Both the position numbers and the translations under genes were made by a program. Of a DNA stretch of 64,000 nt, positions 3,988 through 60,108 are shown in pieces. Each line of letters begins with the position of its first letter. Within the stretch, counting starts at the first letter, position 1. The notes beneath the pieces were generated by a model that searched no databases, had not been told where the DNA came from, and saw nothing but the letters and a program-made list of their open reading frames with translations. This stretch comes from Minisyncoccia bacterium (lineage in GTDB: Bacteria > Patescibacteriota > Minisyncoccia > SW-4-49-11): the NCBI GenBank assembly GCA_044341565.1, contig JBIIRM010000002.1, positions 65,812 through 129,811 on the forward strand, in the 5' to 3' direction.

Positions 3988-5094
3988 ATGAGAGTATTAT
4001 TCGCAAGTGGAGGAACCGGAGGGCATATTTTACCTATTATTGCTGTAAAGCAAGAATTAGAGCTATTAGCTCAAGAAAAACAAATTCCTATAGAATTTTT
4101 ATTAGTTGGGCATCTTGATGAGGTGGGTAAATCATTATTAGAGGCGCATAATATCCCTTATAAATCAGTATATGCAGGTAAAATTAGGCGATATTTTTCC
4201 ATTGATAATTTTTTGGATATATTCCGTGCAATTGCGGGTTTATGTAAGGCTCAATGGTATATTTGGAAATTTATGCCAGATATTACTTTTGGAAAAGGAG
4301 GATATGCCAGTGTTCCTGGAGTGTTAATATCATGGATATATCAAGTGCCTACATTAATTCATGAATCAGATTCCGTGCCGGGACTAGCCAATAAATTTTT
4401 GGGGCGTTTTGCGAGTGTAGTAGCGGTTGGATTTCCTAATGTAGCCTCAGTTTTTGGAGAAAAGAAAACAAGTATTGTAGGAAATATGACTCATCCAGAT
4501 ATTACTGAGGGAAGTCGTGAAGATGCGGGTAGAGTTTTTGAATTAACATTTGAAAAGCCAATATTATTGGTTGTAGGGGGAAGTCAGGGTTCCAAAATTA
4601 TGAATGAAGTAATATGGAGTATTATTCCCCATTTGACTAATAGTGTAGAAATTATTCATATTGTAGGACAGGCTAATATACTTGAGGCTTCTAAGGTGAA
4701 AAAATCACTTCCTCCAAGTCAGGAAAGATTATATCATTATGCGGGATTTCTTGACAATGATATGAAGCATGCTTATGCTGCTGCTGATTTAGTAATATCA
4801 AGAGCGGGAGCATCAAGCATTACTGATATTTGTCTTACTCGTAAGCCAAGTATTCTGGTACCTATTACCGTTGATGCTGGACAACAGCGTTCTAATGCTT
4901 ATGAAATGGCAAAAATTGGAGCTAGTATTGTATTAGAAGAGCCTAATTTTACTCCAAATATTGTACTTGGTAAAATAGATGAATTATTCAGACAACCTAA
5001 TATTATGGAGGCTATGTCGGCTCAAACTGTTCAATTTGCAACTCCAGATGCCGCTACTCGTATTGCTGAGCAATTATTCTCATTAAATCAGTAA
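3988..5094 (+). CDS. murG: UDP-GlcNAc--MurNAc-pentapeptide-undecaprenol GlcNAc transferase
   Basis: N-terminal MRVLFASGGTGGHILP glycine-rich motif and GT-B C-terminal half (VVGGSQGS...ISRAGASSITD). Confidence 0.9.
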   Translation: MRVLFASGGTGGHILPIIAVKQELELLAQEKQIPIEFLLVGHLDEVGKSLLEAHNIPYKSVYAGKIRRYFSIDNFLDIFRAIAGLCKAQWYIWKFMPDITFGKGGYASVPGVLISWIYQVPTLIHESDSVPGLANKFLGRFASVVAVGFPNVASVFGEKKTSIVGNMTHPDITEGSREDAGRVFELTFEKPILLVVGGSQGSKIMNEVIWSIIPHLTNSVEIIHIVGQANILEASKVKKSLPPSQERLYHYAGFLDNDMKHAYAAADLVISRAGASSITDICLTRKPSILVPITVDAGQQRSNAYEMAKIGASIVLEEPNFTPNIVLGKIDELFRQPNIMEAMSAQTVQFATPDAATRIAEQLFSLNQ

Positions 5095-21519: not shown

Positions 21520-21880
21520 GTTGTGTAGGGAAGATGCCAAGGTACCCTTTATTATATCCTCCCCCGTCACCTACGGTGCCCTCCCCCAAGGGAGGACAAT
21601 AAAACTGTCCCTCGCCGGCGAGGGTGTCGATGAAGTCGACGGGTGGTACCCTATACTGTGTATAGGGAAAGAGACGGGGTGGATTATTAAAAAGCCTATA
21701 TTCTAAAATATAAATTTATTTTAAACCTATCCACACTCCCCCTACGGGTACTCCCTCCTAAGGGAGACAAAAGCTCAAGCTCAAATATATCACAGGCGAC
21801 TGAAAGGTCGCCCCTACGAAAAAATGGAGGGATAAAGCCTCCGCTACGAAAGCATAACTTATCTACGATCTCCTCATCTC
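21520..21880. ncRNA. candidate structured ncRNA(s): GC-rich cluster of seven stable hairpins, class not assignable by eye
   Basis: Hairpins at 21580-21595, 21609-21624, 21626-21640, 21649-21667, 21751-21766, 21795-21812 and 21826-21842. Recurrent CTACG(G/A) linker motif. GC far above flanks. No convincing ORF. Confidence 0.3.
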
Positions 21881-21890
21881 ATACAATATC

Positions 21891-21919
21891 TTGCAAAAAG
21901 GTTGAGTTTATGATATAAT
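21891..21919 (+). promoter_or_regulatory. sigma70-like promoter for tRNA-Ile (TTGCAA-17-TATAAT)
   Basis: TTGCAA 21891-21896 and TATAAT 21914-21919, 11 nt upstream of the mature tRNA 5' end. Confidence 0.45.
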
Positions 21920-21930
21920 TATATTCAAAT

Positions 21931-22007
21931 GCGCGTGTAGCTCAGCTGGTTAGAGCGCTACACTGATAATGTAGAGGTCCCATGTTCAAGTCATGGCATG
22001 CGCACCA
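21931..22007 (+). tRNA. tRNA-Ile (anticodon GAT), CCA encoded
   Basis: Acceptor GCGCGTG/CATGCGC, anticodon stem-loop CTACA-CTGATAA-TGTAG, T-arm CCATGTTCAAGTCATGG, terminal ACCA. Confidence 0.9.
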
Positions 22008-22010
22008 AAT

Positions 22011-22035
22011 AAAGCCCCATATGGGGCTTTTATAT
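22011..22035. terminator. bidirectional rho-independent terminator (tRNA-Ile on plus, folD on minus)
   Basis: Palindrome aaagccccat/atggggcttt flanked by an A-run and a T-run. Confidence 0.6.
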
Positions 22036-22916
22036 TAGAGATTATTGTGTAAATGCTTCTCTTTCAAGTCTTTTAAAATAGCTAAATTATGTATTAATGC
22101 CCAGACAGTGAGTGGTCCTATCCCTCCTGGTACTGGGGTAATTGCCCCTTCAAATATAAAGTCTTTATGATATATATCTCCTCGTATATGATTATCTTCG
22201 TCTCTTGTTATACCAACATCAATTAATACTTGATTTTCTTTAAATACAATATTCTTGAGTATATCAGGGTTTCCCGTCGCTGAGACGATAATGTCAGATA
22301 ATGGTATTAATTCCTCGAGATTATGGGTTTCGCGATGAGCTAATATAGGAGTTGCTCCATAAGCTGGGAGTAAAGTTGCCAGAGGTTTCCCGACTAGTAC
22401 GCTATCATTCAAAATAAGTACGGTTTTCCCAATTAAAGGAATATCATAATGCTCAAATAAAAGAATAATTCCTCGAGGAGTAGCAGGGATAATAGGGGAT
22501 AGGGTCTCACTAATGCGGCTTTGGAATAATTTGCCTAGCCAATAATCAGTAAGTCCATCGGCATCTTTGCTCTTGTGTATACTATTTAATACAACTTGTT
22601 CTTCAATAAATGGGGGAAGAGGTAATTGTATAATAATTCCATCAATACTATTGTCTCGATTAAGGTTGTGTATTTCAGCTATTAATTCTTCTTGGGATAT
22701 ATTGGGTTCATATTTGAATAAATGTAATTTCCCCCCTACTTCTTCGAGAGCTTTAGATTTTTTGTCTACATAAATCTGGGAGGCAATATCATCCCCAACT
22801 AAAATTACTGCTAAATGTAATCCTTCTGGAATCTTGGGTATAATGCTATCAATAATTGGTTGAGCAGTCAGCAAAGGCATAAAAATTTTATTGTTTAAAT
22901 TGAGTGATAAATGCAA
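22035..22916 (-). CDS. folD: bifunctional methylenetetrahydrofolate dehydrogenase/methenyl-THF cyclohydrolase
   Basis: LAVILVGDDIASQIYVDKKSKA...GIIIQLPLP and C-terminal PVPGGIGPLTV motifs. Confidence 0.9.
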   Translation of the reverse strand: MHLSLNLNNKIFMPLLTAQPIIDSIIPKIPEGLHLAVILVGDDIASQIYVDKKSKALEEVGGKLHLFKYEPNISQEELIAEIHNLNRDNSIDGIIIQLPLPPFIEEQVVLNSIHKSKDADGLTDYWLGKLFQSRISETLSPIIPATPRGIILLFEHYDIPLIGKTVLILNDSVLVGKPLATLLPAYGATPILAHRETHNLEELIPLSDIIVSATGNPDILKNIVFKENQVLIDVGITRDEDNHIRGDIYHKDFIFEGAITPVPGGIGPLTVWALIHNLAILKDLKEKHLHNNL

Positions 22917-34504: not shown

Positions 34505-34562
34505 TTATTTCTCAAAATGATCTTTTAATGCTATAATAAAAGTTAATATAAGTATATAAATC

Positions 34563-41474: not shown

Positions 41475-41558
41475 TAATGAAATATATGATAGCATATATT
41501 TAGTATTTTGTATATATAACTTATATGTTATACTCAAATAAAGCTATAATACAAAAAT

Positions 41559-59386: not shown

Positions 59387-60108
59387 TGACAAAAAAATAT
59401 AAGCCACCCTTCAAACATAAAAGAGGGTTCTTTAGTAGTGCTGATGAATTAGTGGATGATATCCCTGATTTAAAACCTGCTATATCAACACAAGAGCAAA
59501 CAGTATCAGCCCCTCCTAAGGTAGACACAAAGCCGACACATTATAATAATGCTCCGAGGCCTAAAACTGAACAGCCTAAGGGGTTAAAGACACAAAAGCC
59601 TTCAACTCAACCTAGGGCTTTTCAAAAAAGACCAAATTTTGCTTTTATTGATGGTCAGAATTTGAATAAATCAATTCAAAATCAAGGTTGGAGTCTTGAT
59701 TATAAAGAATTCCGTAATTATCTTGATAAAGAATTTGGGGTAAAAAAAGCCTATATGTTTATTGGTATGGTGAATACCAATCAGCAATTATACTCAGCCT
59801 TGCAGGACTTCGGATATCATTTGGTATTCAAACCAACTATTGCCAATAAACAAGGTGAGATAAAAGGAAATGTAGATGCCGAAATGGTATTATATGCTCT
59901 TACTCAAATTAATCAATATGATCAAGCGGTTATTGTGAGTGGAGATGGAGATTTTTATACTCTAGTTCAGTATTTACAAAGTCAGCGTAAATTAAAAAAA
60001 TTATTAGTACCCAATGAAAAAGCCTATTCAACTTTATATGATAGCCTAGATATCAGCACTACTTTTGTTGATGATTTACGTAAAACCCTAGAGTATAAAA
60101 AGAAATAA
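59386..60108 (+). CDS. NYN-domain (LabA-like PIN) nuclease with Pro/Lys/Thr-rich N-terminal extension
   Basis: FAFIDGQNL...DAEMVLYAL...VIVSGDGDFYTLVQYLQ match the NYN acidic-residue pattern. N-terminal ~85 aa low complexity. Confidence 0.7.
   Translation: MTKKYKPPFKHKRGFFSSADELVDDIPDLKPAISTQEQTVSAPPKVDTKPTHYNNAPRPKTEQPKGLKTQKPSTQPRAFQKRPNFAFIDGQNLNKSIQNQGWSLDYKEFRNYLDKEFGVKKAYMFIGMVNTNQQLYSALQDFGYHLVFKPTIANKQGEIKGNVDAEMVLYALTQINQYDQAVIVSGDGDFYTLVQYLQSQRKLKKLLVPNEKAYSTLYDSLDISTTFVDDLRKTLEYKKK

Follow-up and report, generated by a model that had tools for sequence, protein, structure and literature searches.

The GC-rich island between an amidase gene and tRNA-Ile in the window, the whole stretch of 64,000 nucleotides analysed here, is in our judgement (probability about 0.85) a decayed, non-coding composite in which REP-like units are enclosed in a MITE derived from an insertion sequence; it lies upstream of the tRNA-Ile promoter and is not an RNA gene. 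Two layers are proposed. The first would consist of REP-like units in an array; read on the minus strand, each unit has a 5'-GTAG head and a short GC-rich hairpin, the type of substrate of RAYT (Y1/HUH). The second would be a MITE from an rve-type (IS3/IS481-like) insertion sequence, which would carry these units between its imperfect TG...CA terminal inverted repeats. A DDE transposase acting in trans may have inserted the element with a 5-bp staggered cut.

Composition, hairpins and modules of the island

The GC content of positions 21520-21880 is 47.4%, the joint highest of all 361-bp stretches in the 64 kb, against a window mean of 34.2%. An earlier note on this DNA had described such an enrichment, together with seven stem-loops, a CTACG motif used five times and the lack of a credible ORF, and each of these observations was reproduced. 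All seven stem-loops are present where the note had placed them, and the sole ORF overlapping the region has 61 aa and a TTG start. The motif CTACG occurs at 21571, 21742, 21814, 21844 and 21863, which accounts for five of its 13 plus-strand copies in the 64 kb. Perfect GC-rich hairpins with a stem of at least 6 bp number four in the whole window; three are in the island and one is the tRNA terminator. When compared with shuffled controls, both strands folded more stably (z = -3.7 for plus and -4.3 for minus). The promoter that the note had assigned to tRNA-Ile itself was confirmed as TTGCAA-17-TATAAT (21891-21919). Beyond tRNA-Ile lie two minus-strand genes, folD and glyA.

Two of the five CTACG motifs form the loops of additional mini-hairpins, CACC-TAC-GGTG and CCC-TAC-GGG (21567-21579 and 21738-21750); in the alignment of copies this loop is G-N-A closed by C-G, reading GTA, GAA or GCA. 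On the left side, the adjacent large genes 17932-19878 and 19881-21482 fell into one BLAST cluster, with each other and with their orthologues, and the C-terminal translation of the latter, the amidase gene, contains a repeated segment of ~70 residues ending in GYKW(S/N)NI.

Nearly the entire length of the element (21484-21885) was matched in other loci, here designated by L numbers, and the modules into which it can be divided are listed in Table 1. The orthologous left end in L001 reads TGAATAAGATGAG... with ATATC before it, and this type of end was also found in L008, L012, L028, L070 and L071. The central core, GGGTGGAT followed by an AT loop and ATCCACC, is shared with the complete 270-bp copies in L008, L012 and L063. 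The GGAGG unit recurs upstream of the GGCGACC unit in L010, L019, L038, L048, L055 and L056.

Table 1. Features of the island and its neighbours in the window, and RAYT-family reading frames in related loci (positions refer to the window unless a locus is given).
Feature	Position	Strand	Remarks
Amidase-domain protein, 533 aa, Pfam Amidase_2	19881-21482		stop codon is the left border of the region
Whole inserted element, ~402 bp, composite hairpin-rich non-coding mobile repeat	21484-21885	.	delimited by filled and empty sites
Decayed left terminal repeat aGAATAAGGCGAGAAACAATATCTAGATAATTGTGAGTTGTGTAGGG; family consensus TGAATAAGATGAGATACATCGTAGACAAGTTGTGAGTT...	21484-21530	+	left target duplication lost
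Stem-loops (n = 7)	21577-21598, 21609-21624, 21626-21640, 21649-21667, 21751-21766, 21795-21812, 21826-21842		
Double-hairpin module, subfamily 2, TTGTCCTCCCTTGGGGGAGG + GCACC-GTA-GGTGA...	21556-21599	-	sub-threshold whalefall-1 match; ~20 related copies in other loci
Hairpin pair CCCTCGCCGGCGAGGG + GTCGATGAAGTCGAC, travelling as one module	21609-21640	.	pair also in L017, L029, L070, L018, L054, L056
Variable hairpin CCCTATAC-TGT-GTATAGGG	21649-21667	.	different hairpin in L001; single match among other loci
Central inverted repeat GACGGGGTGGAT / ATCCACAC around an AT-rich spacer, core of the family's long palindrome	21673-21736	.	
Double-hairpin module, subfamily 1, TTGTCTCCCTTAGGAGGGAG + TACCC-GTA-GGGGGAGTGTGGAT	21729-21770	-	nhmmer E=8e-13; ~25 near-identical copies, several MAGs
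REP-like unit, GTAG head + G + GGCGACC-TTTCA-GTCGCC	21795-21817	-	at least 80 stretches in genome contigs
REP-like unit, GTAG head + C + GGAGG-CTTTATC-CCTCC	21826-21847	-	
Intact right terminal repeat TGTATGAGATGAGGAGATCGTAGATAAGTT, ...CATACA at the plus-strand end	21856-21885	-	nhmmer E=1e-6
Surviving copy of the 5-bp target-site duplication, ATATC	21886-21890	.	ATATC on both sides in L001
Target context outside the element: tRNA-Ile promoter, -35 TTGCAA 21891-21896, -10 TATAAT 21914-21919, tRNA to 22007	21891-22007	+	
tRNA-Ile(GAT)	21931-22007	+	right neighbour of the island
RAYT-family ORFs with internal units	L011 2833-3378; L094 2501-3061; L097 2501-3073; L098 2501-3163; L074 3374-3856(-)		

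Pairing in the double-hairpin module was counted over 32 distinct copies. Helix 1 was paired at 98% and the small second helix (G-N-A triloop, 'CGTAG') at 84%, each with three pairs changed on both sides, against 58-65% for slid controls; these counts of double changes reflect a few subfamilies and not many independent events. In subfamily 2 as well, double changes preserve the pairing of the stem. The hairpin potential of the copies is maintained, which fits recognition as folded single-stranded DNA as well as a role as RNA. The compensatory stem changes indicate a structural constraint, one that would also be expected of a functional RNA.

Two further features of the hairpins were seen. The CTCCCT/AGGGAG hairpin encloses, in the loop of some of its copies, another GC-rich hairpin whose own loop is of the GTA type (L063 576-646, L064 ~4005-4074, L058 ~695-762 and L031 ~2435-2502). 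Degenerate heptamer runs (TTATGAA / TTGTGAG) precede many GTAGGGGCGACC units, with inverted repeats around unit dimers; such runs lie at L036 2700-2740, L021 4500-4570, in the flanks of L067 and L084, and at 21510-21525 of the window.

The earlier note had favoured a structured ncRNA as a unit separate from tRNA-Ile. On this view, the island would be a housekeeping RNA in diverged form or a novel sRNA, with its own transcription. The strong folding z-scores on both strands and the stems kept by compensatory changes across copies agree with this reading, as does a similarity to whalefall-1. The comparison with Rfam that the note had proposed covered the window and 18 related loci with the gathering score as threshold, and 21300-22100 with the looser limit of E<=10. 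At the gathering score, the window gave four tRNAs only, with no family on the island; matches in the 18 related loci were again only tRNAs, plus a tmRNA elsewhere, and whalefall-1 was not among them. In the permissive scan, whalefall-1 (RF01762) matched 21556-21599 (-) with 27 bits. The module resembles this motif in its hairpin with a UUGG-type loop and the G-rich tail that follows, but it stays below the gathering score of 37 and is thus a sub-threshold match. The whalefall-1 motif is known only from whale-fall metagenomes (Weinberg 2010, PMC2864571). RNase P, tmRNA, SRP and 6S had no Rfam match on the island, and no tmRNA was found there with ARAGORN.

A CRISPR-like array was considered and dropped; the linkers are constant, the 'spacers' are hairpins and there is no repeat regularity. 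A TnpB omega-RNA was likewise dropped, as there is no TnpB and the upstream gene is the amidase.

Filled and empty sites, dispersed units and RAYT-family genes

Syntenic contigs were reached via homologues of the amidase protein. Between amidase and folD, the window has a spacer of 553 bp and L001 (amidase 92% identical) one of 600 bp, against ~100-140 bp in L002 (88%) and L003 (78%). The window and L001 have the ~402-bp segment 21484-21885, which is lacking at the same site in L002, L006 (amidase 89%) and L003. In L006 and L002, only 2 nt separate the amidase stop codon from ATCTTGCAA, which is the -35 region of the tRNA promoter (2-9 nt across L002, L006 and L003). The empty sites in L006 and L002 read (G/C)TATC-TTGCAA, and the promoter is unchanged there. 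Since the segment is present in the window and L001 and absent in the next-closest relatives, we infer that the insertion dates to the common ancestor of the window genome and L001. The relatives with the empty site have no terminator between the amidase stop codon and the tRNA promoter, which are 2-9 nt apart.

The island in L001 is homologous but rearranged. Whole modules are replaced relative to the window copy, one inverted unit lies at the left end, and there is one additional 33-nt unit with TTTTTCGTAG direct repeats on either side. Because whole modules were swapped and the 33-nt unit lies between TTTTTCGTAG repeats, the interior differences may have arisen by recombination or gene conversion with other copies and by slippage between linkers. 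The long-range pairing between 21561-21568 and 21673-21679 suggested by the earlier note is present in the window, but both of its partners are replaced in L001, which rules it out as a conserved element of the structure.

Seen from the minus strand, the CTACG linker becomes CGTAG directly before a hairpin, that is, a GTAG head. Genome contigs were scanned, with one genome per species, for the unit GTAGGGGCGACCTTnnAGTCGCC with the pattern GTAGGGGCGACCTTNNAGTCGCC, which gave at least 80 stretches. Among the matches listed, ~72 were in 12 AT-rich CPR MAGs labelled Paceibacteria, Parcubacteria and similar, with up to 24 in a single MAG. The REP-like unit was not found in viral contigs. The copies were largely intergenic; 72 of the 77 copies listed were outside ORFs of at least 150 aa, though 75% of the bases lie in such ORFs. 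Their flanks hold the other modules of the window, namely the GGAGGG unit, the paired CCCTCG/GTCGA hairpins and both 'TTGTC...' double hairpins, as well as the GTCGGCG and CCCCTC hairpins of L001. Among 416 GC hairpins in CPR loci, GTAG was on the 5' side in 109, against 7 for the mirrored control, a count biased by the search pattern.

The earlier note had also asked whether the hairpins recur. They do so in many intergenic copies in related genomes, from which the multi-copy counts come; within the 64-kb window, blastn with word size 7 gave no second copy. The window genome is 75-92% identical in nucleotides to the repeat-rich MAGs in three syntenic blocks, and its segment appears repeat-poor. 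The short spacers at 34505-34562 and 41475-41558 of the window are empty, and the MAG JBIKVS01 has element clusters there (L063 440-803 and L036 2700-3010). A 23-nt match to the CTCCCTCCTAAGGGAGACAAAAG module (59511-59533; 91% identity, E=0.015) lies within a coding region and is probably due to chance. The 23-nt GTAG-hairpin pattern was also seen outside CPR, in a few MAGs of higher GC, each of which has it twice in similar surroundings (L015 and L073, Dehalococcoidia MAG; L032 and L082, Deltaproteobacteria / Pseudomonadota MAGs). L052 is labelled Proteobacteria; since it has 33% GC and CPR-type flanks, it may be a misbinned contig.

Taken together, these findings largely refute the RNA gene, which we regard as exceedingly improbable. 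No Rfam family reaches the gathering score in the window or the 18 related loci, and the segment is missing at the orthologous site in three close relatives; a housekeeping RNA would not come and go among relatives as close as these. Modules are swapped between the two orthologous copies, of which L001 has lost the long-range helix, and the plus strand has no promoter-like site at the left edge of the island. Furthermore, its parts are scattered over many unrelated intergenic sites. The earlier note had held that the same hairpins in many intergenic copies would speak against an RNA gene, and this is the situation in the related genomes. The last alternative on its list, a REP-like cluster, is in essence correct. 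Parts of the island recur at dozens of other intergenic sites in these genomes.

RAYT genes were searched by tblastn and phmmer with E. coli RayT. A regex motif screen had missed the RAYT-family genes because their HUH motif is H-T-H. RAYT-family ORFs were found in L011 and L074 (MAG CALMJI01), with a Pfam Y1_Tnp domain and an NCBIfam REP_Tyr_transpos score of 60 bits against a cutoff of 80. Their homologues number 694, of which several are named RayT by JGI and one is in L098 (the repeat-bearing MAG JAULZW01). RAYT-family ORFs with GTAG-hairpin units of the window type were also present on metagenome contigs; the 64-kb window has no RAYT gene. The GGCGACC unit adjoins the RAYT-like gene of L074 and also occurs inside it, and the RAYT-family ORFs of L011 and L097 enclose a near-identical version of the GGAGG unit. 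Within the RAYT-family reading frames, GTAG hairpins form an inverted pair, one ~100 nt and the other 380-470 nt past the start. The unit type, which may be GGAGGG, GTCGGCG or GGCGACC, is particular to each gene, and the internal units are in frame in the translation, for example as VAEGLSL and GGINPPLR. The homologues P0131/P0135 contain additional tandem unit copies, and the Moranbacteria homologue P0175 is without both unit segments. As RAYT-family ORFs contain the same GTAG-hairpin units, the hairpin layer of the island is, as judged from sequence, REP-like and RAYT-associated.

Terminal repeats, target duplications and adjacent promoters

These results bear on a rival explanation, in which the island is a REP/BIME cluster mobilised only by RAYT (HUH/Y1) on single-stranded DNA, the 'terminal repeats' are REP-related and no DDE transposase takes part. 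The format of a GTAG head with a GC hairpin is REP-like in the terms of PMC2817692 and PMC3733652. The occurrence of the same units in RAYT-family genes agrees with it, and inverted, REPIN-like dimers of the units ~23 nt apart are present in L008, L014, L021 and L038. Moreover, in the vicinity of many hairpin copies a TG...CA end cannot be recognised. Such a cluster is nevertheless hard to reconcile with the ends of the element.

The ends were found with a model of the terminal 30 nt, which detected TGT- and TGA-type ends in many loci. Complete copies are 268-446 bp in length with inverted TG...CA ends. Three of them have perfect 5-bp direct duplications (L001, ATATC; L008, TCAAC; L012, ATTTT), and L028 agrees at 4/5 positions; L063 3531-3804, an apparently complete copy, has no 5-bp duplication. 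The chance of a 5/5 match is estimated at ~0.002 per pair for the AT-rich base composition. The ATATC pair in L001 is target DNA, because the empty sites read (G/C)TATC-TTGCAA. In the window, the right end is intact and followed by ATATC, and the left end lacks both the duplication and its own first base; owing to these losses, the window copy is probably immobile.

The end on the right of the window element also occurs as 26 nt that code for the final residues of WLIEYLSVRPHTSLNYLTPLQFLDSMSTISSSYT, and an open frame runs inward from it in L088, L089/L090 and L049. This remnant matches the C-terminal end of Pfam rve_3 over ~30-34 residues (E=6e-6; 26.2-26.3 bits against a cutoff of 26.5). An intact transposase with these ends was not found in ~0.7 Mb of loci, and all-versus-all clustering of 712 ORFs of the loci gave ordinary paralogues only (ABC ATPases, GTPases and glycosyltransferases). 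In metagenomes, the TGT end was matched by four stretches, all short remnants, and a word-based search of a protein collection with the 42-aa remnant gave two short fragments and no intact transposase. Because of the rve_3 remnant, the TG...CA ends and the short fixed duplication, the parent is likely to have been an IS3/IS481-like DDE element.

HUH/Y1 transposition is not known to make target duplications, and perfect ones surround the TG...CA ends of three complete copies. In addition, the end sequence runs on into the remnant of an rve-type transposase gene, and the block consisting of the end, the GGAGG unit and the GGCGACC unit is conserved in many loci. A cluster moved by RAYT only is accordingly quite improbable, and REP-like units within the ends of an IS-derived MITE remain the preferred explanation.

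The window element ends exactly 5 bp upstream of the -35 hexamer of tRNA-Ile. Outside 19 TGT-type ends, position +6 was T in 19/19 and position +8 was G in 17/19. TTGACA with at most one mismatch was found at offset 5 in 10/19 (background 0.55%), and a -10 hexamer with at most one mismatch and a spacer of 16-18 nt in 14/19 (background 5.5%). TGA-type ends showed no such T/G positions, TTGACA or -10 pattern. The orientation of TGT ends to the promoter was always the same; the sites include 21886-21919 of the window, L038 1170-1215, L029, L070, L074 and L088-L091. In addition to tRNA-Ile, the promoters hit were those of other tRNAs 46-51 bp downstream (L038, L012) and of a protein gene (L063). 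The promoter is the target and not cargo, since it is in place at the empty sites and its hexamer spacers are unrelated in sequence from site to site. These results suggest that insertion may be promoter-directed. We speculate that the transposase could capture TTGACAA for its likeness to the element's own TGAACAAG/TGAATAAG end. Targeting specific to tRNA genes was set aside in favour of adjacency to the promoter (-35 box), several targets being protein-gene promoters.

The position next to promoters raises the question of exaptation, in which the insertion would have been kept for a local action of its hairpins, as minus-strand terminators against antisense read-through into the amidase gene, as 3' stabilisers of amidase mRNA or as an insulator of the tRNA promoter. 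The family lies systematically just upstream of promoters, and two terminator-like sites are present on the minus strand of the island (21842-21826 and 21624-21609). Effects of REPs on termination and mRNA stability are reported in PMC3733652. The two terminator-like matches compare with 0.9 +/- 0.9 in shuffled sequences and are not clearly above expectation, and the runs that come after the hairpins on the plus strand are of A, not of U. Furthermore, relatives without the element keep the gene order and the promoter, so the element is dispensable. Hence, we consider exaptation unlikely. The island, as a decayed composite, is most likely without a dedicated cellular function, and if it did act locally on termination or RNA stability, this would be a by-product.

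A wider system can be envisaged, conceivable if doubtful, in which Paceibacteria harbour a composite of RAYT-type HUH genes with in-frame cognate GTAG-hairpin units, unit arrays in IS3/IS481-derived MITEs, and MITEs that home in one orientation to sites 5 bp upstream of sigma-70-type -35 boxes and perhaps insulate or modulate promoters genome-wide. If confirmed on complete genomes, REP units within IS-derived ends, oriented insertion 5 bp upstream of -35 boxes and in-frame REP units in RAYT genes would be of biological note. For annotation, a false candidate ncRNA is removed, and GC-rich hairpin islands in AT-rich CPR genomes are explained as mobile repeats. Assemblies can be broken by such repeats, which can also pass for structured RNAs; motifs like whalefall-1 are possibly among these.

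Comparison with known systems

As the searched literature gave no description of REP, RAYT or MITE elements in CPR bacteria, the family appears to be undescribed, although it is of known kinds. REPs of the GTAG superfamily are built of a GT(A/G)G head and a palindrome, according to Nunvar 2010 (PMC2817692) and Di Nocera 2013 (PMC3733652). The window units share the unpaired GT(A/G)G head and a GC-rich hairpin of 17-20 nt, as seen from the published GTAGGTCGGCCTTCAGGCCGAC against GTAGGGGCGACCTTTCAGTCGCC here. The stem-loops at 21795-21812 and 21826-21842 have perfect stems of 5-6 bp, and the unpaired head is on the minus strand (GTAG-G-GGCGACC... and GTAG-C-GGAGG...). Further points of likeness in related MAGs are the many intergenic copies with several unit types per genome, the mosaic clusters and inverted dimers, and the RAYT-family genes with the same units in the same genomes. 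The host, a member of CPR/Paceibacteria, is outside the phyla named in the abstracts of PMC2817692 and PMC3733652. Unlike known REPs, the window units ride within TG...CA ends and 5-bp duplications. In published RAYT genes, REPs flank the gene or overlap it only at its ends, whereas the units are intragenic here. The alternating orientation of a BIME was not seen, as all five CTACG heads of the window are on one strand.

With MITEs, the element shares a length of ~270-450 bp, the lack of coding sequence, imperfect terminal inverted repeats, a duplication of fixed length, an intergenic position, multiple copies in relatives and an end sequence common to a transposase-gene remnant. In the window, the right terminal repeat is intact and the left one decayed (intact in L001), the 5-bp duplication, seen in L001, L008 and L012, survives as the right copy only, and the 402 bp contain no credible ORF. 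Examples of IS-derived MITEs are Correia/NEMIS in Neisseria and RUP in Streptococcus. In contrast to such MITEs, GC-rich hairpin modules make up the interior in a shuffled mosaic and there is not one homogeneous sequence, the element is in fixed orientation 5 bp upstream of -35 hexamers, and an intact parent insertion sequence was not found.

BOX elements of Streptococcus pneumoniae are modular, with a variable number of internal hairpin units between conserved end modules. The present element is likened to them by its build of hairpin units between end modules, not by its sequence; to our knowledge, BOX elements are not associated with GTAG heads or RAYT. Finally, IS1397 and ISKpn1 (IS3 family) insert into REP loops, and in both cases an IS3-like element is physically tied to REP clusters. 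They differ from the element described here, in which the REP units are inside the ends of the element and the target is the -35 region of a promoter, not a REP loop.
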